DNA from: Isorropodon fossajaponicum endosymbiont JTNG4
Lineage (GTDB): Bacteria; Pseudomonadota; Gammaproteobacteria; PS1; Pseudothioglobaceae
Reading direction: 5' to 3'
Assembly (NCBI RefSeq): GCF_016592615.1
Contig: NZ_AP013043.1
Location: 840,001 to 872,000, forward strand
Length of the DNA: 32,000 nucleotides
Part shown: positions 6,354 to 26,550 of the stretch, piece after piece
Position numbering within the stretch: position 1 is the stretch's first letter
Layout of the letters: each line of letters begins with the position of its first letter
Position numbers and translations under genes: made by a program
The notes under the pieces: generated by a model
Told to the model about the DNA's origin: nothing
Database searches by the model: none
What the model saw: only the letters and a program-made list of their open reading frames with translations

Positions 6354-6489
6354 GTTAATCTATCAATTAGAAGAAGAATGGGCGATACAAAATTAAAAGG
6401 GAGCAATGAACTTTATTGATTTAAGAAATAATCGTATAAAGGAAATTTGCATAGCTTGCCTAGCTTAAATACTAATAAAGAATAATATT

Positions 6490-9720: not shown

Positions 9721-9730
9721 TTTGTATTAA

Positions 9731-9777
9731 TTGACGTTACTCTATTTATGTTGTATGATGTACAACAAACAACATAA
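9731..9777 (+). promoter_or_regulatory. Sigma70-like promoter with an overlapping inverted repeat (candidate operator) upstream of the XRE regulator
   Basis: TTGACG (9731-9736), 17-nt spacer, TATGAT (9754-9759). Inverted repeats TGTTGTA (9749-9755) / TACAACA (9761-9767) and TTATGTTG (9746-9753) / CAACATAA (9770-9777) overlap the -10 element. Confidence 0.45.
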
Positions 9778-9785
9778 AGTCAGAT

Positions 9786-10457
9786 ATGAACACAACAGGT
9801 TTTGGTTACTTTCTAAGAGATATTCGTGAAAACGGTAAGATTTCTTTGCGCAAGCTAGCCCAAGAAACTCAGCTTGATCCAGCATATCTTTCACGAATGG
9901 AACGTGAAATGAGTCCAGCTCCTAGAGTGGAAATTGTTCAACGACTCGCTAAAGCACTTTGTGGTCTGCAAAACTTATCAATGGCAGAATGTGAAAAACT
10001 GAAACGTGATTTACTAGATTCAGCAGGACAACTTACTGAGAGCGCTGATTTGATTGATGACCTAAAGCAGCGTTTTGCGGAACGATTAAGAGACCAAGGG
10101 ATGGAGGAATCCTACATTGTTGATGCAGTCAGCAAGGTTAGCTTAGAAACTATGGACAGAATCTTAAGTGGCCTAGAGAATTTAGAAATTGGTTGTATCA
10201 GTCATTTTGTACCTGGTCCAGATTATTTACCGCTTGATGAAATTGAAGAGCGTAAATCAAAAGGCGAAGAAGTACACTTATTGAAAATGAAGGAAGTGCC
10301 TGCTTCTCCATCTCCTAGAAGAGCGAGCAAAGCTGTCAAAAAAACTAAGTTTCGAGCTGGCTCCCGTGCTTTTATTGAGGTCGATGGCGACCTGACCCCC
10401 TATCAAGAAGAGTTACTGAGGTCGATCACTAGTACGGTGCGACTCATACTAAAATAA
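9786..10457 (+). CDS. XRE-family helix-turn-helix transcriptional regulator with an uncharacterised C-terminal extension
   Basis: HTH_XRE pattern FGYFLRDIRENGKISLRKLAQETQLDPAYLSRMEREMSPAPRVEIVQRLAKAL. At 223 aa it is much longer than a minimal Cro/C-protein. Confidence 0.8.
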   Translation: MNTTGFGYFLRDIRENGKISLRKLAQETQLDPAYLSRMEREMSPAPRVEIVQRLAKALCGLQNLSMAECEKLKRDLLDSAGQLTESADLIDDLKQRFAERLRDQGMEESYIVDAVSKVSLETMDRILSGLENLEIGCISHFVPGPDYLPLDEIEERKSKGEEVHLLKMKEVPASPSPRRASKAVKKTKFRAGSRAFIEVDGDLTPYQEELLRSITSTVRLILK

Positions 10458-10493
10458 AAATAAGATAAATAATAACAAAATAGGAGAACGAAA

Positions 10494-10748
10494 ATGATTA
10501 GAAGATCAAAAGGCTACGCAGTGGTAGAAGTAATGAATGCTGATAGAGAAATTAGAGCATCATTCAGCAAACTTGTGGATGCAATGGCGTTTCATAATGA
10601 TGACAAAATTGACATTGAAAAAGCAAGAATGCAATTTAAGAAAATAACCGATCGTGTGATTCGTGATTTTGAAGAAGATATGATGAATTTTCCTTCGCAT
10701 AGCGATTCACAAAGACCAGTTGAAAGAAGAATTTATACACACCAGTAG
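10494..10748 (+). CDS. Hypothetical 84-aa protein
   Basis: AGGAG RBS at 10482-10486, 7 nt before the ATG. No recognisable motif. Confidence 0.55.
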   Translation: MIRRSKGYAVVEVMNADREIRASFSKLVDAMAFHNDDKIDIEKARMQFKKITDRVIRDFEEDMMNFPSHSDSQRPVERRIYTHQ

Positions 10749-10931
10749 ATGTTAGAGAGTATACAACTTAGCGATTATCAACCTGACGAATTTAAGGAGT
10801 TGTACGTCTGTGCTTTAATACTGATGGCGCAAGATTCATCAATACAGGATGCACACAGTAGAGTGGAAACCTTGAGAGAGGGGTTAGAGTTTGAAGTAGA
10901 GGTCATACCAAATCGTGAAGAGACACACTAA
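10749..10931 (+). CDS. Hypothetical acidic 60-aa protein
   Basis: The ATG follows the upstream TAG directly (TAGATG), which suggests translational coupling. No recognisable motif. Confidence 0.45.
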   Translation: MLESIQLSDYQPDEFKELYVCALILMAQDSSIQDAHSRVETLREGLEFEVEVIPNREETH

Positions 10932-10969
10932 TGTCATGAAGATCAACTAAAAACAACCTTGGTATTTAG

Positions 10970-11323
10970 ATGAAAAAACTAATATTATTATCTTTATTAT
11001 TAAGCTTTAGTGCCTATAGCGACTGTTTAGACAACGCCATAACAACCACTGCTATGGTTGCTTGTTACGAGACACAGTTAGAAATAGAAGAGCAGAAACT
11101 AGATGATATGCTTAACAAGGCTTACAAGAAATCAGACTGGATTGCTTATGAGATTGAGCAGTCGCAGAAGTATTGGCTTCAATATAGGGACGCTCAATGC
11201 AGTGCTATATATTCTTTCTATGAGAGGGGCACAATGAGATTTATCGCTCATCCTTCTTGTATGGTTGAGTTGAGCAAGCAGAGGCAGAAGGAAATTTATA
11301 CAAGTTTTGTTGAGGATTGGTAA
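10970..11323 (+). CDS. Secreted DUF1311 / LprI-like (lysozyme-inhibitor family) protein
   Basis: Signal peptide MKKLILLSLLLSFSAYS. DUF1311 pattern with conserved Cys spacing: C..........C.....E...LD..LN.AY.......Q..WL.YRD..C.......G......C......R..E. Confidence 0.7.
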   Translation: MKKLILLSLLLSFSAYSDCLDNAITTTAMVACYETQLEIEEQKLDDMLNKAYKKSDWIAYEIEQSQKYWLQYRDAQCSAIYSFYERGTMRFIAHPSCMVELSKQRQKEIYTSFVEDW

Positions 11324-11370
11324 TAATTTTGTTGATAGATAAGTAGTAGCTAAGAAGATAAGAGTAAATA

Positions 11371-11417
11371 AGCTATGCACCCTATGCACATTGATTTAAT
11401 GCATAGCTTGCATAGCT
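11371..11417. repeat. Imperfect inverted repeat built from GCTATGCA units, upstream of the MTase module
   Basis: AGCTATGCACCCTATGCA (11371-11388), 11-nt spacer, TGCATAGCTTGCATAGCT (11400-11417). The arms match at 16/18 positions. A related element lies at 16658-16696. Confidence 0.7.
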
Positions 11418-11448
11418 TTAATAGGTGATAATTAATACATAAATCATT

Positions 11449-13546
11449 ATGAATATAACACAGATAGAACAAAACCTTAAAGGCCTAATCGATTCATTCG
11501 ATAAGGATGAGTTTATCTATGATTTATTATTAGCTTACGGAAGGCCTAAGGCGTCCATTACTCGTCTTAAAAGTGGCAACTTAAACCTGTCTTCAGTAGA
11601 AGGTGAAGTATCCTGGAAGAAGCAATTATTCTTTAAAGAAGAATACAATGCTGACCTACACCTAACAGTTTCAGAGTTAGTTAAAACAATCAAGAATGAC
11701 CAAAGGTTTGTCATCGTTACTGATTATGAAACTCTTCTAGCGATTGATGCCAAGACACTAGATAAGCTTGATATTAAACTAACTGATTTACCTAAGCATT
11801 ATGATTTCTTCTTGCCTTGGGCTGGCATGGAGAAAACTCAGCATCAAGATGAAAATCCTGCCGATGTTAAAGCTGCTGAGAAGATGGCTAAGCTATTTGA
11901 TAAGATTAAGGAAGATAATCCAGATGACTCACCTGAGTTTATTCATGGTCTAAATGTCTTCTTATCAAGGCTGTTGTTCTGTTTCTTTGCAGAAGACACT
12001 AATATCTTTACTGGGAATCAGTTTACTTCTAACATAAGCTCACACACACAGCCTGATGGCAGTGATTTACATAGTTACCTAGCAAGCTTGTTCAAGGTAT
12101 TAAACACACCTGAATCGGACAGACAAGGCCTACCTGATTACTTAAAAGAGTTTCCTTATGTCAATGGTGAGCTGTTTAGTAAAGAGCATCAAATACCTGT
12201 ATTTAAGACCAAATCAAGACAAGCGATTATCGATAGTGGTACGCTAGACTGGTCAAGCATTAACCCTGACATCTTTGGCTCAATGTTCCAAGCAGTAGTT
12301 GGAGAGACTGAACGGGGTAGCTTAGGCATGCACTACACCTCGGTGCCTAATATCATGAAGGTAATCAAGCCTTTATTCTTAGATGATTTGTATGAAGCCT
12401 TTGATAAGTCAATTGGAAATAATAAGAAGCTAATTAAGTTAGCTGATAGACTTAGTAAGATTAAGATATTCGACCCTGCTTGTGGCTCAGGGAACTTCCT
12501 GATTATTGCCTTTAAAGAGCTTAAGAGATTAGAGATGGAAATCTTTAAAGAGTTGAACTCTTTCACCTTTTCACAAATAACACCTTCACAGTTCTACGGT
12601 ATTGAAATAGATGACTTTGCTCATGAAATAGCCAAACTGTCTTTATGGTTGACCGAACATCAAATGAATGTTGAGTTTAATAATGAGTTTGGCAGGGCTA
12701 ATCCAACGCTACCACTTAAGAAAGCTGGCAATATTACTTGTGCAAATGCTACGAGAATTGATTGGGAAGAGGTTTGCCCTAAAGATCGAGATGATGAAAT
12801 TTATGTTTTAGGAAATCCTCCCTATTTAGGTTCAAGAAATCAAAATCTTCATCAAAAAGATGATATGAAATTTGTATTTACAACTGGATACAAGAGTTTA
12901 GATTATATTTCTTGTTGGTTTTATCTGGGTGCGAACTACATAAGGGGTGTAAATATAAAGTGTGCATTTGTATCTACTAATTCAATATCTCAAGGCGAAC
13001 AAGTGTCACTTACATGGCCAAGAGTTCTAAAAAAAGATGTAGAGATATTTTTTGCTTATCAGTCATTTAAGTGGAAAAACAATGCCATAAGCAATGCTAA
13101 TGTAATAGTTGTTATTATTGGCATTGCAAACACCTCTAGTGATAAAAAATATATGTTTAAGGAAGCGATAAAGCATGAAGTTTCAAGTATAAATGCATAT
13201 GTTATGGATGAGGGCTGTTGGAGGAAGGCTAAAAACAGATTATAGGTATTCAAAAAATGTTGTTTACAATACCTTTCCATTTCCAACAATGAGCAAGAGG
13301 CAAAAAGAAGAATTAACTCAACATGTTTTTAATATCCTGGGTGAGCGAGAAAAGCACCCTGAGAAGACATTAGCCCAACTCTACGATCCAGACAAAATGC
13401 CAGACGGTTTACGAGAAGCTCATCATCAAAATGATTTAGCGATTGAGAGTTGTTATCGTAGCAAGCCATTTGAAAATGATGAAGAAAGACTGGAGTATTT
13501 ATTTAAACTATATGAAAAGATGATTGCCGAAGAGGAGACTAAGTAA
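11449..13546 (+). pseudogene. MmeI-family-like gamma-class N6-adenine DNA methyltransferase, disrupted by a frameshift and an apparent deletion of the target-recognition domain
   Basis: Motif I IFDPACGSGNFLI (from 12469) precedes motif IV GNPPYLG (NPPY at 12814-12825). FVSTNSISQGEQV is present. The family C-terminal tail GGRLKTDYRYSKNVVYNTFPFP...LYDPDKMPDGLREAHHQNDLAIE...ERLEYLFKLYE is in a different frame (13193-3546). Frame 1 stops at 13243-13245. Confidence 0.75.
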
Positions 13547-13547
13547 T

Positions 13548-15476
13548 ATGCCAAATTTAATTGATGTTGAATACGCTCAAACGGGCCAAAGCACCAGTAC
13601 CAATGAGATGGGTATGCGAGACATGCAGGTTCGTGCCTTTGATGGTCGTGATGCTCAATACATTCTACTAAAGTCTCCACCAGCCTCAGGCAAGTCTCGT
13701 GCTTTAATGTATATAGCGTTAGACAAGTTAATCAATCAAGGTGTTAAAAAGGTAATTGTTGCCGTGCCTGAACGCTCAATTGGTGGCTCGTTTGTGACAA
13801 CTGATTTAAAGTCCAAAGGATTCTTTGAGGACTGGGAGCCAAGTGATCGATATAACCTTTGCACCCCAGGGGGAAGCAAGAGCAAGGTCAAGGCTTTCCA
13901 TAACTTTCTAGATAGTGATGAACAGATACTAATTTGTACACACGCCACACTTCGCTTTGCATGTGAGGGGATAGATGAAAGTCAGTTTAACGATGTACTA
14001 TTGGCAATTGATGAGTTCCATCACGTGTCGGCAGATGTAAATAGTCGATTAGGTGAACTATTAAGGCCAATCATGAATAGGTCTTCCGCACATATTTTTG
14101 CCATGACTGGTTCGTACTTTAGAGGAGATAGTGTTCCAATTCTATTGGCAGCAGATGAAGCTAAATTTACTAAGATCACTTATAACTATTATGAGCAGTT
14201 AAACGGCTATAAATACTTAAAGTCTTTAGGTATTGGCTATCACTTTTATCAAGGTAAATATACTTCTGCGATTATGGAAGTATTAGACACAGACAAGAAG
14301 ACCATTCTTCACATTCCTAATGTCAACTCAGGTGAGTCAACCAAAGACAAGCATAATGAAGTTGATTTCATTCTAGATGCTATTGGCGATGTAGTGAGCC
14401 AGGATGCCGATACAGGCGTTATTCATGTCAAAAGACATGGTGATGACGGCAAGATGTTAAAAATAGCCGATTTAGTGGAGGATACCGCTCTTGAAAGGGA
14501 TAAGATTGTGGCTTATTTGAGAGGTATGAATTCTGTTGATGACATGGATTTAATTATTGCTCTGGGTATGGCCAAAGAAGGATTTGACTGGCCATATTGT
14601 GAGCATGCATTAACCGTTGGTTACCGAAGTTCACTCACTGAAATCATTCAAATCATTGGCCGAGCCACTCGTGATAGTGACAATAAGAATCATGCCCAAT
14701 TCACTAACTTAATTGCTCAGCCTGATGCAGATAATGATGAGGTTAAGATAGCTGTTAATAACATGCTTAAAGCTATTACTGCGTCACTATTAATGGAACA
14801 AGTTCTAGCCCCTAGCTTTAAATTTAAAACCAAATTATCAGATGATGACACATCAACAGGCAGGACAATAAAAGTTGGCGGCCTGAAAGAGCCTAGCTCT
14901 AAACGAGTTAAAGATATTGTTGAGTCTGACTTAAATGATTTAAAGGCTGCGATATTACAAGACCCTCAGATGCTCAAAGCCATGCCAGGCAATATAGACC
15001 CCAAGGTTATGAATGAGGTGTTAATCCCTAAAATCATTAGAACCAAATACCCTGATTTATCTGACCAAGAGTTAGAAGAAGTACGTCAGCATGTAGTGAC
15101 TGATTCAGTGATTAAGAATGGTGAGATTAAAAAAGTAGGTGACAAACGATTCATTCGTATGGCGGATACTTTTATTGATATTGATGAGATAAACATAGAC
15201 TTAATTGATTCTATTAACCCCTTTCAAAAAGCCTTTGAAATCATGTCTAAGTCAGTCACTAAACAGGTGCTTAAAGTTATTCAAGAAACTATCCAGGCTA
15301 CAAGAATTAAGATGGATTGGGAGGAGGCAAAGATACTGTGGCCCAAGGTTAAAGAGTTTGTCAAAGCCAATAAAAGAGAACCAAGCATTGAATCTCGTAA
15401 CCCTCAAGAGCAACGTTTGGCAGAATGTGTAATTTACCTTAAAGAAGAGAAAAGAAGGAATGCCCAGAATGGATAA
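13548..15476 (+). CDS. SF2 DExH-box helicase/translocase (restriction Res-like) with an uncharacterised C-terminal region of about 200 aa
   Basis: ATG at 13548 with a GAGGAG RBS (13532-13537), 1 nt after the MTase stop. Walker A LLKSPPASGKSRAL, DEFH box AIDEFHH (14010-14021), motif III-like MTGSYFRGD and motif VI QIIGRATRD. Confidence 0.8.
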   Translation: MPNLIDVEYAQTGQSTSTNEMGMRDMQVRAFDGRDAQYILLKSPPASGKSRALMYIALDKLINQGVKKVIVAVPERSIGGSFVTTDLKSKGFFEDWEPSDRYNLCTPGGSKSKVKAFHNFLDSDEQILICTHATLRFACEGIDESQFNDVLLAIDEFHHVSADVNSRLGELLRPIMNRSSAHIFAMTGSYFRGDSVPILLAADEAKFTKITYNYYEQLNGYKYLKSLGIGYHFYQGKYTSAIMEVLDTDKKTILHIPNVNSGESTKDKHNEVDFILDAIGDVVSQDADTGVIHVKRHGDDGKMLKIADLVEDTALERDKIVAYLRGMNSVDDMDLIIALGMAKEGFDWPYCEHALTVGYRSSLTEIIQIIGRATRDSDNKNHAQFTNLIAQPDADNDEVKIAVNNMLKAITASLLMEQVLAPSFKFKTKLSDDDTSTGRTIKVGGLKEPSSKRVKDIVESDLNDLKAAILQDPQMLKAMPGNIDPKVMNEVLIPKIIRTKYPDLSDQELEEVRQHVVTDSVIKNGEIKKVGDKRFIRMADTFIDIDEINIDLIDSINPFQKAFEIMSKSVTKQVLKVIQETIQATRIKMDWEEAKILWPKVKEFVKANKREPSIESRNPQEQRLAECVIYLKEEKRRNAQNG

Positions 15477-16647
15477 AGAGCAAGCTCTATCCGCTATATT
15501 TGCAGATGACCCTTTAGGTATTCTTGTAATAAGGGCAGCTTCAGCACCGAGAACATCTGATGAGAGGCTAGTGTCTTCATTCCAAGAGATTACTGATTTT
15601 TATACAGCCAACGGGCGTGAGCCAGAAGCAAATCAGAGTGATATTGCAGAGTACCAATTACATGCAAGATTAAACAGTCTTAGAGAAGACACTGATAAAG
15701 CCGAATCGTTAGAAGAGTACGATCAGTTTGATTTACTTAAGGTTGAAGAAAAAGAAATTAATTCTATTGATGATATATTTGATGATGACTCCCTAAATAT
15801 TCTTGGTGGAGATGATGAGGGTCTGTTTGATTTTGAACACACACCAAAGCAAAAAGATATTAATAAAGCTGACTTCGTTGCTCAAAGAAAACGATGCAAG
15901 GACTTTGATAAATATGAGCAGCAGTTCAAAGACATTCATCATGACTTAAAAGCAGGAAAAAGAAAGCTTATACCTTATCAAGAGAAGCAATTAAATGAGG
16001 CAGGCAATTACTTTGTTCACAATGGAATCTTGCTTTACCTTGAAACTATTAATGACCTAGCAAAGGATAGGTTTCATAAGGCTGATGGTAGAACTAAAAT
16101 CATCTTTGAAAATGGCACTGAATCAAACATGAAGCTTCGTTCACTTGGTAAAAATTTACTAAAAAATAGCAAAGCAGTTACAGCTAATACAGAACAATAC
16201 GATGAAGACTTCCTTAAAACCTTTAATAATGTAACTGATGAAGACGATGAAACAGGCTTTATCTATGTCTTAAAATCGAACAGCATGGACGAGACTATTG
16301 CATCAATTGCCAACCTGCATAAGATTGGATACTCAAAGAATGATGTTGCTGGACGAATTAAGAATGCAGAGCATGAGCCAACCTATCTAATGGCCTCAGT
16401 TTCAATTGTTGGTATTTGGCAATGTTTCAATATGAATCCGCAGAAGTTCGAGCAATTACTCCATAACTTCTTTGGCATGACATGTCTTGATCTAGATGTG
16501 TTTGATGACAATGGCAAACGTCATAGGCCGCAAGAGTGGTTTATTGTCCCAATTGAGGCAATCAATCAGGCGATTGAAATGATAATTAGTGGCGTTATTG
16601 TCAACTATAGATATGACCAGGAATCTGAATCTATTGTATTAAGATAG
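15460..16647 (+). CDS. Protein with a C-terminal T5orf172 (GIY-YIG superfamily) domain
   Basis: The ATG at 15460 overlaps the helicase stop (15476). The C-terminal GFIYVLKSNS...LHKIGYSKNDVAGRIKN......IVGIWQCFNMNPQKFEQLLHNFF.......RPQEWFIVPIEAINQAIEMI fits the T5orf172 pattern. An alternative start lies at 15469. Confidence 0.7.
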   Translation: MPRMDKEQALSAIFADDPLGILVIRAASAPRTSDERLVSSFQEITDFYTANGREPEANQSDIAEYQLHARLNSLREDTDKAESLEEYDQFDLLKVEEKEINSIDDIFDDDSLNILGGDDEGLFDFEHTPKQKDINKADFVAQRKRCKDFDKYEQQFKDIHHDLKAGKRKLIPYQEKQLNEAGNYFVHNGILLYLETINDLAKDRFHKADGRTKIIFENGTESNMKLRSLGKNLLKNSKAVTANTEQYDEDFLKTFNNVTDEDDETGFIYVLKSNSMDETIASIANLHKIGYSKNDVAGRIKNAEHEPTYLMASVSIVGIWQCFNMNPQKFEQLLHNFFGMTCLDLDVFDDNGKRHRPQEWFIVPIEAINQAIEMIISGVIVNYRYDQESESIVLR

Positions 16648-16657
16648 GCCCAATTAA

Positions 16658-16696
16658 AGCTAGGCAAGCTATGCACTTTGCATAACTTGCATAGTG
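16658..16696. repeat. Imperfect inverted repeat of GCTATGCA-type units, downstream of the MTase module
   Basis: AGCTAGGCAAGCTATGCA (16658-16675), loop CTT, TGCATAACTTGCATAGTG (16679-16696). Each arm matches its counterpart at 11371-11417 at 15/18 positions. It sits between convergent genes, so it may also act as a terminator hairpin. Confidence 0.65.
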
Positions 16697-16704
16697 TTAT
16701 GTTG

Positions 16705-18290
16705 CTAGAACTTGTCTTTGAATGATTTTAAATCTATATGACTGTCATCAAAATCGTCATCCTCTGCTTCAAACTCATATTCAGTTGCTCTTTGATTGTG
16801 CTTACTAATCGTTACAAAGGTTTTGTTCGTCCTGTCTTTTGATTTTTCATAGTAAATACCAACAATCTCTAATGATTCTTGAAGCCTATCCAGGTAGTTA
16901 ACCACGCCTTTGGCGGTAGTTGGCCATCTTTGTGACCTGATAACCTTTTCAGATACATAACATTTGTCTTCTAGCCTCTCCAGCAATTCAATCGGTCTGC
17001 CATAAAAGTTACTTTCTCTTTCAAACATCTTAACAATACCAGAAGCAAAGGTAGAGGACTCTAACGAATCGACATGGGTGTTCCTTATGTTGTCTTTATA
17101 GACTTTCATAAACTCACCTTCGAACCATCCATAGGCACCTGATGCTGCTGTAGACAGTCGACAGAAGTCGGCCATACGGGTTAAATCATCAACCTGTGTA
17201 TGCGGCATGGCTTGAATTGACCAAGCCAGTCCATCTAGTAATGCACCAAAGATAGATGGAGCATCTGCCGTAAAGTCAGCCCAAACCTTTTTCTCAGTTT
17301 TCCTAGTCTTGATTTTTCTTAGCGGTAACTTAACGCTACGACTAACTAAATCACCACGCTTAGCTATCTCATCAATACCATTCATAAGACAAGGTTTCTT
17401 AATGGAGATGGTCATCTCATCGTTAGTGGTGTAGAGCTTTCTAACTGCCTGGTTGTCGCCTGTTGCAATCTTGCAAATAGCATCACTAAACTGAGGACTG
17501 ATGCCACTCAAGTTGTCAAATGCTAGTACATGGTTGTTAGTTCCAATTACTCTCATGTCACTAATGCTTGGCTTGGTGAGCAAGTCAACTTTGTTAGGGT
17601 CTACAAGCTCTCTAAGCATCCTAGAAGCGGTTGTCTTACCTGTGCCAGCACTACCCCATTAAGAATCATAACAGGATAGGCTCCTGGTCCAGCTTGCAAT
17701 GACATTAGCAACCACCCAACAGCAAGAGGTAAGTCTCTCTTCTCGATGTTAATATGATTAAGTAACAATGAAATATCACCACCCTCTATAGGAGCAGGCA
17801 ATGGCCTCATGTTTCCAGTACGTGTAAAGCATACTGGAGATTTATCTAGCACTCTCCAGCCATTTATATCAACTTCAACAACCTGCCATGAGTCATTACA
17901 CAGGTCAATGTACATGGAGTTATCTACTTGGGCTACCCTTAGATAAACATCTTTTCTATCGCCATCAAAATCTGCAATAGATTTAATGGTGTCAATAGCA
18001 GTATCTAGTGCCGCCTTAGAAACGCCTGTGAGTGTTTGATAATAATACTTCTTTCTTAACCAGCTCTTATATTTAACCGAATCTGCTCGATATATTTCCG
18101 TATGGCCATTGAGTTTAATTTCAGCGTATTCATTTTCTTGATTATCACAAAACAAAACGTTTTCCAACCTAGCAAAATCAATTAATATGTTCTCTGGTTT
18201 TTTGTTAGAATTATCATTGAGGTTATTATCCAATTTCTTCTGGCCAGTTAAGCTCTCTACAGTTTCACTGGCTTTTTTATTGTCATTCAT
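16705..18290 (-). pseudogene. P-loop NTPase replication (primase/helicase-like) protein of the island, frameshifted in a homopolymer tract
   Basis: Two ORFs overlap (17601-18290 and 16705-17619). The Walker A GSAGTGKTTASRMLRELV is readable only in the downstream frame, which is closed by TAA just upstream. One extra G in the GGGG run (C4 at 17654-17657 on the plus strand) would restore ..VMILNGGSAGTGKTT... Walker B-like VLAFDNLSG is present. Confidence 0.7.
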
Positions 18291-18484
18291 TTCGTCACCG
18301 CCCTCTTCTCAATACATTTATCCAAATAGTCCATCACCTCTTGCTCAACCCAACCGCTTGAGCGTTCACTTAATTTGATTTGCTTTGGAAACTTTCCATC
18401 CGCTATTAAACGGTAGATAGTTGTACGACTAAGGGTGGTTATATTTAGTACCTGGTACAGTTTTATGATATTCATGTGCTTCAT
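18287..18484 (-). CDS. alpA: AlpA-family (MerR-like HTH) regulator/excisionase
   Basis: LSRTTIYRLIADGKFPKQIKLSERSSGWVEQEVMDYL is the classic AlpA/phage_AlpA pattern. AGGAG RBS upstream. The stop overlaps the next gene's start (ATGA). Confidence 0.85.
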   Translation of the reverse strand: MKHMNIIKLYQVLNITTLSRTTIYRLIADGKFPKQIKLSERSSGWVEQEVMDYLDKCIEKRAVTK

Positions 18485-18572
18485 TAAGACTCCTTGTCTT
18501 GGTTAAAAAAGCGTTATTAGGTTGTAATAACTACTTGTGGAGTATTATGAAATATCGTGTGATTTATTGAAA

Positions 18573-18603
18573 AGGTGATTTTATAAAATAAAATAAATCA
18601 CCT
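18573..18603 (-). terminator. Hairpin downstream of orf256 (candidate terminator)
   Basis: AGGTGATTT (18573-18581) pairs with AAATCACCT (18595-18603) across a 13-nt A/T loop, 20 nt after the stop at 18623. The trailing T-run is weak. Confidence 0.4.
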
Positions 18604-18622
18604 AAGAAGAATGTTGTTATGA

Positions 18623-19393
18623 CTAGGGTTTCAGAGCGTTGAAGATATATTTCTTTATTGTATTATCTTTTAAATTCCGCTCTGCTTTATTTAAACAAAG
18701 CTTAACCAAGTTGAAGAACCTGCCCTCAATAAGCTCATCGTCAGTCTCATTGATATAGTAGCCGTCGTCCTTACCTTTGTGTGTTGTGGTGTATTTACCT
18801 TTAGAGCTTCCTGTGAAGATTTTATAGTTAATAAAAAGATTTCTAATGAAAGCCATATCAATATTCACTTTGCTTTGATTTGATTCTAACTCGATATAAT
18901 TTGAATTATTCTTTTCAAGATTTTCTATTACACCTTGCAATAAAAGCAGTGAAGTAATAATATCTTCTCGTGATGTTGAGATTTCTTTTGCGATTGAACT
19001 GGTGTTGAGCTTTACAAGTTCACTATTGATAATATCTAACTTTTGACTGTGTGTACTTACAGGTGGTGGTGCAAATGCAGAGAAGTAGGTTATAGGGTCA
19101 TCCTTGTTTGTAGTTTTGTATCGATTAACCTCATCCAGTGCCTTGGCTTTAAATTCACCAGCCCCTACTTCATTAGATAAAAGCAAGTTAACTAACGTAT
19201 CAGCAGTCTCGTATATTTCACGTCCAGATGATTTCTTCCACGATTTAGCGCGAATATAAATCATTTGGTCAATATTTATATGCTGAACAAAGTCGCTCTC
19301 GATTTCATCAATAGATGAATTAGTGTATGACTTGTTATCAAATCCAATTTCAAGTAGGTCTTGCTCCGTAATTAGGTATGACTCTCTATCCAT
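18623..19393 (-). CDS. Hypothetical 256-aa protein, translationally coupled to the integrase
   Basis: The ATG at 19393 overlaps the integrase 3' end (19386) by 8 nt. No recognisable motif. Confidence 0.6.
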   Translation of the reverse strand: MDRESYLITEQDLLEIGFDNKSYTNSSIDEIESDFVQHINIDQMIYIRAKSWKKSSGREIYETADTLVNLLLSNEVGAGEFKAKALDEVNRYKTTNKDDPITYFSAFAPPPVSTHSQKLDIINSELVKLNTSSIAKEISTSREDIITSLLLLQGVIENLEKNNSNYIELESNQSKVNIDMAFIRNLFINYKIFTGSSKGKYTTTHKGKDDGYYINETDDELIEGRFFNLVKLCLNKAERNLKDNTIKKYIFNALKP

Positions 19394-20579
19394 TGGAGTT
19401 GCCTTTTATATTATCTAAGTAATCAGACCACTGCTGCATCATATCCCTTCTCTTCTCAAGATACTCCGCATTGTTATAGGCATCTCGAGTCTTATTAGCT
19501 TCAACATGTGCTAATTGCATTTCAATCCAATCTGAATTAAATCCCATCTCATTTAACCTGGTGCTAGCCATGCTTCTAAAGCCATGAGTAGTGAACTTTT
19601 CTTTCGGAATGCCTAACCTTCTAATAGCTGCACGTAAACTTTCAGCACTTATTGGAGATGAGCTTTTCTTGGGACTTGGGAAGACGTATGTATCACTTAA
19701 ACTTAAAGACTTAATCTCCTTAAGTTTAGAAAGCACTTGTTTACTTAAAAACACCAAATGCTCCCTACCCATCTTCATGTTTTCAGCCTTGATCCTGATA
19801 AGCTTCTCTTTAAAATTAACCTCTTTCCATGTAAGCTTAGAAACCTCACCAGGCCTTAAGAGCAAGTAAGGCGTTAAGTTCAATGCCTCTGCAATTTGAT
19901 AGGTACCTCTGCCCTTGTAATTCTCTAGCGTTAACAGTAGCTCCTTAATATCATCTTCAGTAGTTACAGTGGCATGATGTTTAGTCTTATGCTTCTTAAA
20001 ATGCTCGTTGGTAATATTGGCTATTGGGTCGTACTCGATCAATCCAGTAACAACACAATCTTTAAACACCCTGCTTGACCAACCCTTAACTTTCTTAAGA
20101 GCAATTGAAATACCTTTATCATCCATCTGTCTAAGAACATGCAACATATCTGGAGTCTTAATATCTTCAATTGGAGTATTGCCGATGTAAGGAAAGATGT
20201 GTTTTTCAAAAGTAGCAACTTGTTTCTGAGCAGTTCGTTTTGTCCATTCACTCTCATGCCTATTAAACCATCTGTCAAATGCTTCTCTAAAGGTAATCTT
20301 CTGCTGTTGCTTAATTTTTAACTGTTTCTTATAAGCGCTAGGATTAATACCTTGTGACAATAAGGCTTGGTTTTCATCTCTAAGCACTCTAGCTTGAGCT
20401 AATGATACTGCTGGATATTTTCCTAACGAAATCATTGAAGCTTTACCGTCATAACGATAACGAAACCTCCACTTCTTTGCACCTTTAGGAGTGATTCGTA
20501 TAGACAAGCCGTTACTATCAGCGACTCCATACTCAAAGTCCTTAGTTTTTAGGTTTTTAATTTTAGTATTGTTAAGCAT
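19386..20579 (-). CDS. int: Tyrosine-type site-specific integrase (P4-like, DUF4102 N-terminal domain)
   Basis: N-terminus GLSIRITPKGAKKWRFRYRYDGKASMISLGKYPAVSLAQAR. C-terminal catalytic region LLLRPGEV, HGFRSMASTRLNE and IEMQLAH...RDAY. It lies next to the tRNA 3' end. Confidence 0.93.
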   Translation of the reverse strand: MLNNTKIKNLKTKDFEYGVADSNGLSIRITPKGAKKWRFRYRYDGKASMISLGKYPAVSLAQARVLRDENQALLSQGINPSAYKKQLKIKQQQKITFREAFDRWFNRHESEWTKRTAQKQVATFEKHIFPYIGNTPIEDIKTPDMLHVLRQMDDKGISIALKKVKGWSSRVFKDCVVTGLIEYDPIANITNEHFKKHKTKHHATVTTEDDIKELLLTLENYKGRGTYQIAEALNLTPYLLLRPGEVSKLTWKEVNFKEKLIRIKAENMKMGREHLVFLSKQVLSKLKEIKSLSLSDTYVFPSPKKSSSPISAESLRAAIRRLGIPKEKFTTHGFRSMASTRLNEMGFNSDWIEMQLAHVEANKTRDAYNNAEYLEKRRDMMQQWSDYLDNIKGNSNG

Positions 20580-20590
20580 AGTTTTTATCT

Positions 20591-20614
20591 TATACTCACA
20601 ATTGTACTCACTTT
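20591..20614 (+). repeat. Tandem 12-bp units TATACTCACAAT / TGTACTCACTTT, a candidate integrase arm-type site
   Basis: Same core (T[AG]TACTCAC) and orientation as the repeat at 4821-4844. It lies directly upstream of int. Confidence 0.5.
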
Positions 20615-20699
20615 ATATCAGGATGTCGCGGAATTTCATGGAACAGTAAAAACACACTATATTGTTAAATACCGCTATAGGTAGGTATTTAAGACATAA

Positions 20700-20726
20700 A
20701 TCAAGACACCCTGGGGGTGTCTTGAT
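20700..20726 (-). terminator. Island-borne hairpin after tRNA-Asn, a candidate terminator insulating int
   Basis: ATCAAGACACC (20700-20710) pairs with GGTGTCTTGAT (20716-20726) across a 5-nt loop. On the minus strand it is followed by TTTATGTCTT. Confidence 0.55.
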
Positions 20727-20735
20727 TTACTTGTA

Positions 20736-20811
20736 TGGCTCCTCGAGCTGGGCTCGAACCAGCGACAAATGGATTAACAGTCCATTGCTCTACCAACTGA
20801 GCTATCGAGGA
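20736..20811 (-). tRNA. tRNA-Asn (anticodon GTT), CCA encoded
   Basis: The reverse complement reads TCCTCGATAGCTCAGTTGGTAGAGCAATGGACTGTTAATCCATTTGTCGCTGGTTCGAGCCCAGCTCGAGGAGCCA. It has a 7-bp acceptor stem TCCTCGA/TCGAGGA, anticodon loop CTGTTAA, a GGTTCGAG T-arm, and close resemblance to E. coli tRNA-Asn. Confidence 0.95.
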
Positions 20812-20822
20812 ATGAAGGTGAA

Positions 20823-20851
20823 ATTATAATGATATATGCGTGTTAAAGCAA
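20823..20851 (-). promoter_or_regulatory. Candidate sigma70 promoter for tRNA-Asn
   Basis: On the minus strand: TTGCTT (20846-20851), 17-nt spacer, TATAAT (20823-20828). The -10 element ends 11 nt before the mature tRNA 5' end. Confidence 0.45.
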
Positions 20852-21007
20852 TCTAAAAATCAGTTATTTTTATAGTTTTTTTAAATATGCCAAAAACTAC
20901 ACTGATACGTACTTATACACTAATTTTTTTTAAACAAAAAGGACGCAATTACACCCTTGATTAATCAAGATGACTAATTATTTTATCACAGGCGTTGAAC
21001 CAAGCGG

Positions 21008-21073
21008 TTAGGTTAATACTGAAGTCGCTACAACTACTGTGGCCATTGCTACTATTTGTATTAATGTTTTCAT
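21008..21073 (-). CDS. Possible 21-aa hydrophobic peptide (MKTLIQIVAMATVVVATSVLT)
   Basis: A strong GGAGG lies 6 nt upstream of the ATG (21071-21073). The sequence resembles the signal peptides of the two neighbouring GNW-repeat proteins. It is very short, so the call is speculative. Confidence 0.25.
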   Translation of the reverse strand: MKTLIQIVAMATVVVATSVLT

Positions 21074-21170
21074 ACCTACCTCCATACTTTTTTTAATTAT
21101 AACAAAAAAAATAAAATCTAAAAACATGGCAATATTTTGACTGATGCCGCCAAAAAAAAAATTCAGACAA

Positions 21171-21193
21171 TAAAACCACCCAAAGGGTGGTTT
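21171..21193. terminator. Rho-independent terminator after the first GNW-repeat gene
   Basis: AAAACCACCC, loop AAA, GGGTGGTTTT, with A/T runs on both sides. A second perfect palindrome CTGCTAGATTAATCTAGCAG lies at 21204-21223. Confidence 0.7.
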
Positions 21194-21238
21194 TATTTAA
21201 CCTTGCTGCTAGATTAATCTAGCAGTCAATTAGGTGTC

Positions 21239-21772
21239 TTACTTAGCAATCACTTGATCACGACTGTCAGCAGTTGCGTTAGCTTTAGCATAAGCATAAC
21301 CTTTAGCATAAGCATCAGCTTGTGCTTTAGCGAATGCATCAGCTTGACCTTTGGCATAAGCGTCAGCAACACCTTTAGCGCTAGCATCAGCAGTACCTGC
21401 ATATTTGCCATCGGCAGTTGCGCTAGAAACGTTCTTAGTCGTGTTCTTATTATTATAATGGAAACCCCAATCAGAATCGTTGTTCATATCGTTGTTGTTT
21501 GAAAAAGGACCCCAGTTGTTAGCGCCGTTGAAAGGACCCATGTTAGAACCACCATTCATTGGACCCCAGTTGTTACCACCTGAAAAAGGACCCCAGTTAG
21601 AACCACCATTCATTGGACCAAAGTTAGAACCACTATCAAATGGACCCCAGTTAGAAAGACCATTGCCAGTACCCCAGCCGTTGTTATTATTGCCATAACC
21701 GTTGTTGTTATTCCAAAATGCTGATGCAGATGTAGCAGCTACTAAAGTAGCAATTGCAATTATTTTTTTCAT
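21239..21772 (-). CDS. Secreted Gly/Asn/Trp-rich repeat protein, paralogue A
   Basis: I chose the ATG at 21772 (GGAG RBS 7 nt upstream) over the TTG at 21784. Signal peptide MKKIIAIATLVAATSASA/FW. Six 9-aa units of type G(S/N)N(W/F/M)GP(F/M)xG, encoded by 27-nt tandem repeats (21507-21668). Ala/Lys-rich C-terminus with ADAYAKG-type repeats. Confidence 0.8.
   Translation of the reverse strand: MKKIIAIATLVAATSASAFWNNNNGYGNNNNGWGTGNGLSNWGPFDSGSNFGPMNGGSNWGPFSGGNNWGPMNGGSNMGPFNGANNWGPFSNNNDMNNDSDWGFHYNNKNTTKNVSSATADGKYAGTADASAKGVADAYAKGQADAFAKAQADAYAKGYAYAKANATADSRDQVIAK
21424..21757. repeat. 334-bp block identical to 22331-22664 (copy 1)
   Basis: Base-by-base comparison by eye found no mismatch at an offset of 907 nt. 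The block covers the repeat domain and most of the signal peptide of the paralogues. Confidence 0.9.
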
Positions 21773-22157
21773 ATTAATCTCCAAATTAAAAAGTATTAAC
21801 GCTCTTATTGTTAAGCGGGTTTTTAAGTAATCAGACTTTGTGGTCTTGATGGGGGTATTATATGGTAAATATATTATAAGTCAATGGTATTCTAATATAT
21901 ATTAATAATGAAACCATAAGAACCCTTCTAGCCTCTCTATTAAAATATTTTACCAAAATAAAAAAATATTTAAAAAAATAAAATAACCAGAAAATATCAC
22001 TAAAACTAATTAAATTAAGTGTGAAAAAAAGATAAGTTTTAGATAAAAAAATATTCAAAATTTAGCTAATATTTAATCATTAACCTGCATATAAATATAG
22101 CAGAAACAAAAAAGCCCCCCACCCCAAAGGCGGCTTTAATTTAATGCTGTCTGAATG

Positions 22158-22688
22158 TTACTGACCTCTACTGTCAGCATTTCCTGCAGACTTTCCATCT
22201 GCATAACCTTTAGCATAAGCGTCAGCTTGACCTTTGGCAAAACCATCAGCTGCACCTTTAACATAAGCATCAGCCTGTGCTTTGGCATTTGCAGAAACTA
22301 CACCAGTTGCATTACCATCTACTGAGGCATTAGAAACGTTCTTAGTCGTGTTCTTATTATTATAATGGAAACCCCAATCAGAATCGTTGTTCATATCGTT
22401 GTTGTTTGAAAAAGGACCCCAGTTGTTAGCGCCGTTGAAAGGACCCATGTTAGAACCACCATTCATTGGACCCCAGTTGTTACCACCTGAAAAAGGACCC
22501 CAGTTAGAACCACCATTCATTGGACCAAAGTTAGAACCACTATCAAATGGACCCCAGTTAGAAAGACCATTGCCAGTACCCCAGCCGTTGTTATTATTGC
22601 CATAACCGTTGTTGTTATTCCAAAATGCTGATGCAGATGTAGCAGCTACTAAAGTAGCAATTGCCACTAGTTTTATTGCGTTTTTCAT
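22158..22688 (-). CDS. Secreted Gly/Asn/Trp-rich repeat protein, paralogue B
   Basis: ATG at 22688 with an AGGAG RBS. Residues from the signal peptide core to ..NKNTTKNVS are identical to paralogue A. The C-terminus diverges (AKAQADAYVKGAADGFAKGQADAYAKGYADGK). Confidence 0.8.
   Translation of the reverse strand: MKNAIKLVAIATLVAATSASAFWNNNNGYGNNNNGWGTGNGLSNWGPFDSGSNFGPMNGGSNWGPFSGGNNWGPMNGGSNMGPFNGANNWGPFSNNNDMNNDSDWGFHYNNKNTTKNVSNASVDGNATGVVSANAKAQADAYVKGAADGFAKGQADAYAKGYADGKSAGNADSRGQ
22331..22664. repeat. 334-bp block identical to 21424-21757 (copy 2)
   Basis: See copy 1. Confidence 0.9.
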
Positions 22689-24311: not shown

Positions 24312-25805
24312 TTAAAGAAAGTATTGATAGGCTTTATTGTTGGTTTCATTTTGATAGAAATAGCCCAGTTCATCAAACTTTTGCTCAAGTTTGGGTGCAT
24401 CACTGGCTTGTAAACCAATTAGTACACGACCAAAGTCAGCACTATGATTACGATAGTGGAATAATGAAATATTCCAATAACTACCAATTTTTTTTAGAAA
24501 ATTAAGTAAAGCACCTGGTCGTTCAGGAAATTCAAAACGATAAATAACTTCATTTTTACAATTTGCACGACCACCTACCATGTAGCGAATATGCGTTTTT
24601 GCGATTGAATTATCACTCATATCTAGCACACCGAATGATTTTGATAGCTTATCCAACAAGGCTTTCTTTTCGCTCAACCCCTCATTCAAAGCCACACCAA
24701 CAAAAATACGTGCTTGAGCATCCGACCCAAAACGATAATTAAACTCAGTGATTACGTGGTTATCTAGCATCTGGCAGAATGTTAAAAAACTCCCTGGTTT
24801 TTCGTCAATAGTAACAGCAATAATAGCCTCATTATGCCCGCCTAAATCAGCGCGTTCTGAAATATAACGTAAACGGTCAAAATTAACATTTGCACCTGAC
24901 ACAATTGAGACAATATTTTCATTTTTTATATTGTTATTTTCAATATATTTTTTCACCCCAGCAGTTGCCAATGCGCCTGCAGGTTCAGCGATTGAACGCA
25001 CATCTTCATAAATATCTTTAATGGCAGCGCAAATCTCATCATTACTAACCAAAATTACTTCATCAACCACCTGCTTGGCAATAGGGTAAGTTTGCTCACC
25101 GATTTGTTTAACCGCCACGCCATCAGCAAAGCATCCTACATCTTTTAATACCACGCGCTTGTTGTTTTTCAATGCTTGGTAAAGTGTGGGCGAGTCTTCT
25201 GGCTCAACACCAATTACTTTAATATTAGGTGCATAATGCTTGATATAAGTTGCCATGCCAGCAATTAAGCCGCCACCACCAACAGGAATAAAAACCTTAT
25301 CCATACTTGGCAGTTGCTCTAATAATTCCTTGGCAATGGTTGCCTGTCCTGCCATGACTTCAACATCATCAAAGGCGTGAATAAAGACCAAATCTTGGCT
25401 TTTTTCTAACTGTTTGGCATATTGGTAAGCATCATCATACACATCGCCATGCAGGACGACTTTTGCACCTGATTGCTCAACAGCGTTAACTTTAATCCTA
25501 GGTGTTGAAAACGGCATAACAATAATCGCACTAATACCTAATTTTTTAGCAGACAGGGCAACACCTTGCGCGTGATTACCTGCGCTGGACGCTACGACAC
25601 CTTTAGAGGCTTGTTCGGCAGACAGGTTTGAAATTTTCTGATACGCACCTCGAAGTTTGAAGGTGTGAATAGCCAGTTTATCTTCTCTTTTAAGATAAAT
25701 TCTATTGCAAACGCGCTTAGATAATTGAGACGCAAAAGACAATGGCGTAACACTTGCCACTTCATAAACACGTGTATCGTTTGCTAAATCAATAATGCGT
25801 TGCAT
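24312..25805 (-). CDS. ilvA: Biosynthetic threonine ammonia-lyase (threonine dehydratase)
   Basis: Colinear with E. coli IlvA: KREDKLAIHTFKLRGAY, SAGNHAQGVALSA, PVGGGGLIAGM, SGANVNFDRLRYISERA, and C-terminal ACT-like regulatory repeats ending NISLFHYRNH. I chose the ATG at 25805 (MQRIIDLANDTRVYEV) because the track N-terminal extension overlaps the upstream gene. Confidence 0.95.
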   Translation of the reverse strand: MQRIIDLANDTRVYEVASVTPLSFASQLSKRVCNRIYLKREDKLAIHTFKLRGAYQKISNLSAEQASKGVVASSAGNHAQGVALSAKKLGISAIIVMPFSTPRIKVNAVEQSGAKVVLHGDVYDDAYQYAKQLEKSQDLVFIHAFDDVEVMAGQATIAKELLEQLPSMDKVFIPVGGGGLIAGMATYIKHYAPNIKVIGVEPEDSPTLYQALKNNKRVVLKDVGCFADGVAVKQIGEQTYPIAKQVVDEVILVSNDEICAAIKDIYEDVRSIAEPAGALATAGVKKYIENNNIKNENIVSIVSGANVNFDRLRYISERADLGGHNEAIIAVTIDEKPGSFLTFCQMLDNHVITEFNYRFGSDAQARIFVGVALNEGLSEKKALLDKLSKSFGVLDMSDNSIAKTHIRYMVGGRANCKNEVIYRFEFPERPGALLNFLKKIGSYWNISLFHYRNHSADFGRVLIGLQASDAPKLEQKFDELGYFYQNETNNKAYQYFL

Positions 25806-26550
25806 GCAGTTCTCGTAGATACGCCACATCAACATAAGTTGCATTAGTCGCATCACCTTTGATTAAGTCAAAAGGCTTATCTTTATCACCTAAATGGTCA
25901 AGCACAACCAACGCACCATCAAATTCATACTTATCTGTATATTCATTAACTGTAATAACGGTCTTAAGTCCAGCTTGTGTTGCCGAAATAATGCCATTAT
26001 GTGAATCTTCAAAGGCCAGGCATTGAGCAGGGCCTAAGTTCATTTGCTCTAGCACATAGGTATAAATATCACCAGCTGGCTTTAGCTTTGGCACAATATT
26101 ACCAGCACCAATCACTTCAAACCAGTCTAGTGCTCCAGATCCTAATGTATTTGCAATCAAGGCATCAACATTAGCAGGGGTTGTGGTTGTGGCAATTGCC
26201 AACCTAAGATTGGTCTTTCTTACCTCATTAAACAAACGCTTAACGCCTGTTCTCAAAGGCACTGCACCTTCATCCATTAAACGTACATAAATTTTAGTTT
26301 TTAACTGATGGATAGAGGCAACAAAATCATCCAAATGTTGATGTTCAAACGCTGGGTTGTATTTTTTTAAATAATATTTAATCCGCAATTGTCCTCCTGT
26401 CACATTGAGTAGTTTGTGGTAAATCTCATTTGACCAATGCCAATCTAGACCCAACTCTTTAAATGCCAAATTAAAGGCCTTTAAATGCCCGTCACGCTCA
26501 GTATTTGCCAAAGTTCCGTCAACGTCAAAAATTAATGCTTCTAATGCCAT
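25789..26550 (-). CDS. cbbY: HAD-superfamily phosphatase, CbbY-like
   Basis: LIFDVDGTLANTE (DxDGT motif) with overall resemblance to CbbY (..AFN.AF..LG.DW.W....Y..LL..TGG..RI..Y; ATTT..NV.AL). Confidence 0.7.
   Translation of the reverse strand: MALEALIFDVDGTLANTERDGHLKAFNLAFKELGLDWHWSNEIYHKLLNVTGGQLRIKYYLKKYNPAFEHQHLDDFVASIHQLKTKIYVRLMDEGAVPLRTGVKRLFNEVRKTNLRLAIATTTTPANVDALIANTLGSGALDWFEVIGAGNIVPKLKPAGDIYTYVLEQMNLGPAQCLAFEDSHNGIISATQAGLKTVITVNEYTDKYEFDGALVVLDHLGDKDKPFDLIKGDATNATYVDVAYLRELHATHY

Follow-up and report, generated by a model that had tools for sequence, protein, structure and literature searches.

A Thioglobaceae family of secreted nonamer-repeat proteins under concerted evolution and its possible role in the sulfur globule envelope

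A 32,000-nt stretch of the Isorropodon fossajaponicum endosymbiont JTNG4 genome (assembly GCF_016592615.1, contig NZ_AP013043.1, positions 840,001 to 872,000; hereafter the window) encodes two tandem paralogues of a secreted, cysteine-free protein that combines nonamer repeats, a conserved central block and a tail of octads. Judged from sequence, the proteins belong to a real family which, among the loci and databases searched, is found only in Thioglobaceae/SUP05. The two genes share a core of 334 identical nucleotides, and this core is a gene-conversion tract that arose from a recent event. With some caution, we lean towards regarding the family as the protein envelope of the periplasmic sulfur globules of SUP05, which would make its members functional counterparts of the sulfur globule proteins (Sgps) of purple sulfur bacteria.

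SUP05/Thioglobaceae are the dominant sulfur oxidisers and dark carbon fixers of oxygen-minimum zones (OMZs), of hydrothermal plumes and of clam and mussel symbioses at vents and seeps, and sulfur hoarding is thought to underlie this success. The formation of sulfur globules has been described as characteristic of SUP05; the proteins that build these globules have, to our knowledge, never been defined.

The genes and their component features are listed below by position in the window. The proximal copy lies on the side of icd and the distal copy on the side of tRNA-Asn.

22158-22688 (-): proximal paralogue, open reading frame (ORF) of 176 aa with an ATG start; family profile match E = 1.3e-74
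21239-21772 (-): distal paralogue, ORF of 177 aa from the ATG at 21772; family profile match E = 2.4e-76
22626-22688 (-): predicted Sec signal peptide of the proximal copy, MKNAIKLVAIATLVAATSASA, cut before FW; read from the sequence
21719-21772 (-): predicted Sec signal peptide of the distal copy, MKKIIAIATLVAATSASA; read from the sequence
22331-22664 (-): 334-nt identical core, proximal copy, codon 9 to about codon 119
21424-21757 (-): 334-nt identical core, distal copy, beginning at codon 6; exact identity with 22331-22664
22414-22575 (-): 27-nt tandem repeats encoding six 9-residue units, proximal copy; Tandem Repeats Finder periods 27, 54 and 81; repeat family D1
21507-21668 (-): 27-nt tandem repeats encoding six 9-residue units, distal copy; Tandem Repeats Finder; repeat family D1
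22195-22288 (-): 24-nt repeats of the octad tail (ADAYAKGQ-type), proximal copy; Tandem Repeats Finder period 24
21279-21391 (-): 24-nt repeats of the octad tail, distal copy; Tandem Repeats Finder period 24
22114-22133 (-): intrinsic terminator 3' of the proximal copy, CCGCCTTTGGGGTGG followed by a T run; terminator scan
21172-21225 (-): two hairpins 3' of the distal copy, CTGCTAGATTAATCTAGCAG followed by CCACCCTTTGGGTGG and TTTT; read from the sequence
21857-21884 (-): promoter-like site of the distal copy, TTGACT, 16 nt, TATAAT; 11/12 consensus matches, a consensus match only
20736-20811 (-): tRNA-Asn(GTT), the kept boundary of the paralogue array across SUP05 and the attachment (att) site of an adjoining 16-kb island

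A first-pass annotation, made from the letters of the window, had described two minus-strand tandem paralogues with a signal peptide, six nonamers encoded by 27-nt repeats and an Ala/Lys-rich octad tail, and all of these elements were recovered in the ORFs and by Tandem Repeats Finder, which placed the period-27 arrays at 21534-21664 (inside 21500-21668) and 22441-22571 (inside 22407-22575). In both copies, a signal peptide ending in SASA is followed by FWNNNNGYGNNNNGWGTGNG, six nonamers, a conserved block and the octad tail. The leader after the signal peptide is rich in asparagine, glycine and aromatic residues. The nonamers of the window proteins read x-N-[W/F/M]-G-P-[F/M]-x-G-G. The non-repeat block that follows them in both copies, NDMNNDSDWGFHYNNKNTTKN, was not singled out in the first-pass annotation; in the proximal paralogue, the NDSDWGFHYNNKN block is located between the nonamers and the octad Ala/Lys/Gly tail. 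The mature proteins have masses of 16.0-16.6 kDa and a pI of 5.0-5.6, and contain 19-21% asparagine, 16-19% glycine and 13-14% aromatic residues.

The distal ORF was listed as 21239-21784 (-), 181 aa in length, from an upstream in-frame TTG. Its true start is most likely the ATG at 21772 (MKKIIAIATL...), and not the TTG at 21784, because a GGAGAT ribosome-binding site is found 4 nt 5' of this ATG and because the orthologues at loci L001 and L031 begin at the matching position.

The protein search returned 37 relatives, all of them unnamed or misnamed 'Prion protein', 'PE_PGRS' or 'FliH'; public databases also label the family 'hypothetical'. From a scan of one genome per species, 62 loci were obtained, and a profile search of the ORFs in these loci gave 102 members. 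The named loci all belong to Thioglobaceae (Ruthia, Vesicomyosocius, Thioglobus, the Bathymodiolus thiotrophic symbiont, Ruthturnera and Thiodubiliella), and the family is present in free-living Thioglobus genomes and in OMZ and plume metagenome-assembled genomes (MAGs) as it is in symbionts. An exhaustive HMMER search of 1.84 billion cluster representatives produced only 28 matches below 1e-10, and most of the weaker matches that were inspected consisted of low-complexity repeats only. The 1.0-Mb Vesicomyosocius genomes retain the family with two copies each. Among orthologue pairs, the ratio of nonsynonymous to synonymous substitution (dN/dS) was 0.07-0.39, and the genes are therefore constrained protein-coding genes under purifying selection. 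For the window genes, the orthologues in Ca. Ruthia sp. Plio_17_S18 (CP072538, locus L001) are as follows.

L001 10001-10525: proximal orthologue, dN/dS 0.15
L001 10806-11321: distal orthologue, dN/dS 0.14

The architecture of the window proteins is that of the family. The amino terminus follows the pattern MK(N/K)...AIATLVAATSASA and is cut before FW, with a basic start, a hydrophobic core and an A-x-A site as read from the sequence; this pattern is conserved in 93 members and has no lipobox cysteine. In these 93 members, the nonamers conform to [S/N/Q]-N-[W 48%/M 26%/F 19%]-G-P-[F 85%/M 12%]-x-G-G, and 62/93 have six units (range 3-8) with G-P every 9 residues. Across all 102 members and 62 loci, the G-P positions are invariant and the core is conserved. 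The central block, NDxxNDSDWGFxYNNKN, is nearly invariant family-wide and the tail is made of ADAYAKGQ-type octads. A longer subtype of approximately 196-206 aa, mostly encoded by the last gene in an array, carries PWMPWDN in its N-terminal part and ends in GYGQKGHLGY...FPAP. Cysteine makes up 0.0% and histidine 0.5% of the family composition.

In the octad tail, the hydrophobic moment peaks at 180 degrees with values of 0.51-0.55, as opposed to 0.10 +/- 0.08 in shuffled sequences (z ~5), because small residues (Ala/Gly) strictly alternate with polar residues. An amphipathic α-helix was ruled out for the tail since the moment has no peak at 100 degrees. An AlphaFold2 calculation with a 25-sequence alignment presented the N-terminal two-thirds of the protein as disordered and the tail as a low-confidence helix.

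The names that the family carries in databases do not describe it. Models of FliH, a flagellar protein that regulates the flagellar/T3SS ATPase, matched the octad tail with E = 6e-4 to 6e-2 and 13-22 bits (best 21.9), as compared to curated cut-offs of 180-293. These weak matches arise from the A/G periodicity of the tail, which the Gly/Ala-repeat (AxxxG/GxxxG) segment of FliH shares with the octads, and they explain why some entries are named 'FliH'. A FliH identity was ruled out, as the matches are below the cut-off, align only the Ala/Gly repeat segment and concern secreted proteins of ~175 aa. The names 'Prion protein' and 'PE_PGRS' reflect low-complexity Gly/Trp repeats only; both identities were ruled out, there being no Pfam match in 36 members. 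Metal binding, as suggested by the 'prion octarepeat' name, was also ruled out since the family has essentially no histidine or cysteine.

The family occupies conserved loci. The housekeeping parts of the window (G+C 36.6%) have 93-94% nucleotide identity to Ca. Ruthia sp. Plio_17_S18, 87-90% to Ca. Ruthia sp. Cpac_8 and Ca. Ruthturnera, and ~80-85% to Ca. Vesicomyosocius. The gene order tRNA-Asn, paralogue array, icd, ilvA, HAD, dksA, thiL, nfuA, panC is common to symbionts and free-living relatives across SUP05. Two arrangements recur, one with 1-4 tandem copies between icd and tRNA-Asn and the other with a lone copy, which sits at a second locus next to tsf-rpsB (phoU-phoB/tsf-rpsB). Free-living SUP05 genomes have three tandem copies and one solitary copy. 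In some of them, an ORF of ~182-186 aa that has no Pfam match is found just upstream of the solitary copy at the second locus (L034 9101-9649, L014 1934-2491, L015 9031-9591); it matches the family profile weakly (E about 1e-6) in two loci and may be a very divergent extra paralogue. A third, long-type paralogue is decaying in Ca. Ruthia, where an 86-aa remnant is found in Plio_17 (L001 11734-11994) and a 69-aa remnant in Cpac_8 (L018 11153-11362); it is gone from the window (20812-21238). This decay is consistent with reductive genome evolution.

The two window copies, which are offset by 907 nt, are identical at all 334 sites between 21424-21757 and 22331-22664. Across a 300-nt stretch that overlaps the tail, they are ~82% identical, and the chance of a run of 334 matches at this identity is ~1.6e-29. 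The pair was aligned with both Plio_17 genes (L001). In their upstream regions, first codons and 3' tails, the window genes each match the Plio_17 gene in the corresponding position, at 90-98% for the distal and 82-98% for the proximal pair. The core behaves otherwise: in alignment columns 151-350, it is 80-96% identical to the L001 proximal copy versus 36-84% to the L001 distal copy, while in columns 351-400 it is of the distal type. Since the core is identical between the window copies yet is a mosaic with respect to L001, the tract postdates the split of the two lineages. The distal copy is the main recipient, as most of the tract is proximal-type; it had 334 nt overwritten mostly by sequence of this type. 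Gene conversion had been proposed in the first-pass annotation as an event confined to the repeat domain. The conversion is supported and the confinement is not, as the tract extends over most of the signal peptide and over the conserved block as well, from codon 9 (6 in the distal copy) to about codon 119.

Long identical tracts are also found between paralogue pairs in other genomes, in one case at loci separated by 760 kb, so that conversion is a recurrent event in the family. The distant pairs compared were L001 10806-11321 with L043 10004-10519, L018 with L026, L025 with L028, and L027 with L033. The longest identical tracts were as follows.

Window, tandem copies: 334 nt; 85.5% identity over the gene
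Ruthia Plio_17 (CP072538), distal copy versus another copy at a distance of 760 kb: 410 nt; 99.8% identity
Ruthia Cpac_8 (CP072533), icd locus and second locus: 518 nt; 98% identity
CBDBIZ010000011.1 (1.58-Mb contig), two loci: 504 nt
MOW MAG, paralogues located on different contigs: 322 nt
Vesicomyosocius (two genomes), icd locus and second locus: 55-69 nt; 84-86% identity

The icd locus of Ruthia Cpac_8 (L018 10001-10540) has a single chimeric gene in which a proximal-type 5' flank is joined to a distal-type tail and terminator; it is the product of unequal crossing-over between the two tandem paralogues. The recA gene has been reported lost in clade I vesicomyid symbionts, and the C. pacifica symbiont retains and expresses it. 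This reported loss would fit the low paralogue identity in Vesicomyosocius relative to Ruthia.

The 334-nt tract exceeds a typical short read, and a collapsed or copied repeat could in principle have been written into the assembly. Such an artefact is very improbable, since the copies differ in their flanks, each of which has its orthologous counterpart at a different gene of an independent complete genome, and since the Plio_17 and Cpac_8 records, with their longer identical tracts (410 and 518 nt), are titled complete genomes. Tandem copies are also present in dozens of independent assemblies, and the 504-nt tract lies on a contig of 1.58 Mb. An assembler facing such a repeat normally breaks the contig and does not write it twice in frame.

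Several features of the two genes suggest strong expression. The asparagine codon AAC is used at 65-73% in both paralogues versus 6-41% in eight other window genes, and the glycine codon GGT at ~80%, which would be the pattern expected of very highly expressed genes. Both genes have a strong GGAG ribosome-binding site. By consensus matches only, they are separate transcription units, with terminator hairpins after each gene and a promoter-like site before the distal copy. The hairpins of the distal copy are kept in L001, L018 and L031, and they were not listed by the terminator scan because their T run is short. The spacer between the paralogues (21785-22157; 370 bp) is AT-rich and contains a 20-nt tandem repeat (21942-21983) and promoter-like sites. 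The array is separated from tRNA-Asn(GTT) by ~430 nt of non-coding sequence, an adjacency that is kept in the aligned SUP05 loci; the placement of Asn-rich, AAC-biased genes beside a tRNA-Asn gene could be a coincidence or could be linked to expression.

A view of the same position in a cultured strain comes from the proteome that Shah et al. (2019, mBio, PMC6509183) published for Ca. Thioglobus autotrophicus EF1. Three uncharacterised proteins directly adjoin its icd (SP60_00740), which at 416 aa is equal in length to the window icd. They are among the most abundant in the proteome, and two of them are listed as 'Extracellular' by PSORT-type calls in the dataset of that study (PMC6509183). 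The spectral counts given there are listed below.

SP60_00725 (UniProt A0A0M4NW56): 176 aa; 646 oxic, 807 anoxic (PMC6509183)
SP60_00730 (UniProt A0A0M5LEB6): 174 aa; 311 oxic, 180 anoxic (PMC6509183)
SP60_00735 (UniProt A0A0M4PM17): 171 aa; 813 oxic, 1087 anoxic (PMC6509183)

From position, size, number and predicted export, we infer that the three are family members. The same paper reports that EF1 forms periplasmic sulfur globules and has four putative sgp paralogues, three of which were detected (PMC6509183). The layout of three tandem copies and one solitary copy fits this count of four, and the strain belongs to the same clade; these putative sgp genes may thus be members of the family. 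In the supplements of Shah et al., the words 'globule' and 'sgp' are absent and the dataset labels no protein Sgp, and a full-text search for the locus tags SP60_00725, SP60_00730 and SP60_00735 found no paper. The word-indexed protein database could not link the family to SP60_00725-00735, because the searches, including one with a 36-member profile weighted to free-living SUP05, returned no EF1-named protein and no match as close as the 87%-identical L001 copy.

The family resembles Sgps in several respects. SgpA (Alvin_1905), SgpB (Alvin_0358), SgpC (Alvin_1325) and SgpD (Alvin_2515) of Allochromatium vinosum and the Sgp-like proteins of Thiocapsa, Beggiatoa and Thiothrix are also small periplasmic proteins with a Sec signal peptide. 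Sgps have been described as Sec-exported, repetitive with regularly spaced proline, encoded in separate transcription units and partly redundant (Kumpel et al. 2023). The family likewise has a predicted Sec export signal, as read from the sequence, and is small and repetitive, with regularly spaced proline and a richness in glycine and aromatic residues. It has several paralogues per genome, for which redundancy would be expected as reported for Sgps, and each gene appears to have its own promoter and rho-independent terminator by consensus matches. Sgps themselves, as Brune is said to have described in 1995, are rich in glycine and aromatic residues. The hosts would also be alike in depositing periplasmic sulfur and oxidising it via rDsr. 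A gene set with Sox lacking soxCD and with rDsr is associated with sulfur deposition and re-oxidation. In the literature, every Ca. Ruthia and Vesicomyosocius genome is credited with a Sox system that lacks soxCD and with rDsr, Apr and Sqr, while Arctic96BD-19 genomes are said to have neither sox nor dsrAB. The absence of cysteine and the regular aromatic/Met-Pro repeats suit a coat that is exposed to reactive sulfur.

The differences from Sgps are also clear. The family, which was compared with Sgps by description only, has no curated-family match, and its mature proteins of ~16 kDa are larger than the 11-13 kDa of Sgps. The three-module layout of nonamers, NDSDWGFxYNNKN block and ADAYAKGQ tail was not found described for Sgps. 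Whereas Allochromatium SgpA-C are described as 'extremely hydrophobic' (Kumpel et al. 2023), the family is Asn-rich and hydrophilic, the mature window proteins having grand average of hydropathy (GRAVY) values of -0.97 and -1.02. Phasins on polyhydroxybutyrate (PHB) granules and silk- or hydrophobin-like coats offer a further parallel, being also small, abundant, amphipathic, self-associating and free of an enzymatic domain; silk motifs share the alternation of small and polar residues with the octad tail. These coats have no sequence relationship to the family and serve as a mechanistic analogy only.

As an envelope of sulfur globules, the family would work in the following way, as inferred from its modules. 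The Sec-exported, Cys-free, low-complexity proteins of ~16 kDa would be made in very large amounts. The N-terminal domain, with its approximately six N-[W/M/F]-G-P-[F/M]-x-G-G repeats and a proline every 9 residues, would adsorb to hydrophobic S8 or polysulfane sulfur, the contact being made by the regularly spaced aromatic and methionine side chains of a domain that is predicted to be disordered. The NDSDWGFxYNNKN block and the octad tail would mediate lateral self-association into a thin coat. With Ala/Gly alternating against Asp/Tyr/Lys/Gln, the tail may form an extended chain with one apolar and one hydrophilic face. Paralogues with different tails may be retained in the manner of the partly redundant SgpA and SgpB. 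A more specific proposal, which we put forward as a tentative possibility, is that the coat evolved independently and is unrelated in sequence to Chromatiaceae Sgps. In that case, a disordered aromatic/Met 'sticker' domain would wet the elemental sulfur, the silk-like tail with its alternating Ala and polar residues would form a two-dimensional sheet at the sulfur-water interface and the 2-5 paralogues would be homogenised by frequent conversion, even over distances of hundreds of kilobases in reduced endosymbiont genomes.

The sulfur globule assignment was suggested in the first-pass annotation from composition only. The idea of a globule coat is plausible and is now stronger than composition alone would make it, given the signal peptide, repeats, clade, synteny and sulfur genes of the hosts; it is still indirect, and the hydrophilic character of the proteins and the lack of a curated-family match count against it. 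Some further results also bear on a role on globules, mostly against it. Searches of Pfam and NCBIfam with the two window proteins and 36 members, at E up to 10, gave no family match; the sub-threshold output consisted of the FliH low-complexity matches and one DUF6723 at E = 0.005. A sequence search of the PDB found no meaningful match, and among the 200+ relatives there is no entry named as an Sgp. The AlphaFold2 model was uninformative (mean predicted local distance difference test score, pLDDT, of 46; predicted template modelling score, pTM, of 0.14). No sulfur genes are found beside either locus (icd/tRNA-Asn or phoU-phoB/tsf-rpsB), where the neighbours are housekeeping genes only, and the window has no sox or dsr genes. 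In the symbiont genome and proteome literature and the other sulfur-bacteria literature searched, there was nothing usable on sulfur globules or Sgps in Bathymodiolus or vesicomyid symbionts. The link of the family to the EF1 'sgp' genes and to the abundance figures is one of synteny, size and copy number only, and EF1 has other abundant, adjacent uncharacterised proteins, such as SP60_01110 and SP60_01115 (PMC6509183). The EF1 icd-adjacent proteins rise 2- to 4.7-fold per cell in oxic, globule-rich growth. This rise is not specific, because the EF1 S-layer protein also rises ~3-fold per cell under oxic growth, as do 96% of the EF1 proteins common to both growth conditions.

The main rival reading makes the family an abundant structural component of the envelope or cell surface with no relation to sulfur storage, whether a matrix, an S-layer or outer-membrane partner, or a silk- or amyloid-like fibre. 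The hydrophilic, Asn/Gly-rich sequence with its silk-like alternating tail would suit such a protein, as would the 'Extracellular' predictions for two of the EF1 proteins, an increase in EF1 abundance that is approximately equal to that of the S-layer protein, neighbours that have no sulfur function, and a SUP05 envelope that is itself unusual in having an S-layer and no FtsZ. We consider this reading less likely, since neither the window proteins nor the family alignment has an anchoring motif, lipobox or β-barrel, and at least two copies are kept in extremely reduced intracellular symbionts that have shed many envelope functions. The lack of cysteine and the aromatic/Met-Pro repeats are better suited to a coat on reactive sulfur, and the copy number equals the published count of putative sgp genes. 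Distinctly less probable is a periplasmic low-complexity protein with a non-structural role, such as a chaperone or holdase, a polysulfide buffer, an asparagine (nitrogen) reserve, or a product directed to or digested by the host. The predicted disorder of the N-terminal two-thirds, the very high asparagine content of proteins encoded beside tRNA-Asn, and the many members from symbionts would be in keeping with one or another of these roles. However, the family is equally present in free-living Thioglobus and in OMZ and plume MAGs; because free-living lineages carry it equally, it is not a symbiosis factor, and a symbiosis effector was ruled out on these grounds. The proteins have no cysteine or histidine and thus no obvious way to bind sulfane sulfur or metals, and the conserved repeat register and central block point to a defined assembly.

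The surroundings of the array provide some further observations. The gene at 25789-26550, which had been taken as cbbY-like and as a hint of autotrophy, encodes a generic HAD-IA hydrolase and says nothing specific on autotrophy. The ilvA ORF (24312-25856, listed from a GTG) has a 68-nt overlap with this upstream HAD ORF. As its Pfam and NCBIfam matches begin at residues 21-35, translation of ilvA probably starts at a more downstream position.

On the other side of tRNA-Asn, a 16-kb integrative island (4762-20734) adjoins the 3' end of the tRNA gene and is absent from Ca. Ruthia Plio_17_S18. It is bounded by 17-bp direct att repeats, ATGGCTCCTCGAG[G/C]TGG, at 4745-4761 and 20735-20751. The genes located within it are listed below; a Sel1-repeat protein and a helix-turn-helix (HTH) regulator are also encoded.

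19386-20579: tyrosine integrase at the island end
6490-9720: UvrD-like helicase, 1076 aa
11449-13245: MmeI-like type IIL restriction-modification enzyme
13524-15476: DEAD-box helicase
15460-16647: T5orf172/GIY-YIG-like protein

With this cargo, the element looks like a defence island, and the recent gain of a mobile element is unexpected for a reduced genome that resembles those of clam symbionts.

The functional class to which the family would belong is already known, and the EF1 genes were probably pointed at, undescribed, in the 2019 paper. As far as could be established, the new elements are a family defined together with its architecture, its confinement to one clade, the conservation of its loci, its misannotation in databases and its pervasive concerted evolution. 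The concerted evolution of the copies provides a readout of recombination activity in genomes under reductive evolution. If the proteins do coat sulfur globules, the family could be used to trace the capacity for sulfur storage in metagenomes, metatranscriptomes and metaproteomes, and as a target for tagging in the cultured strain EF1. It would also offer a second, independent system in which to study the stabilisation of a hydrophobic, mineral-like inclusion by a protein layer and, if the coat evolved independently, a first molecular handle on sulfur storage in SUP05.

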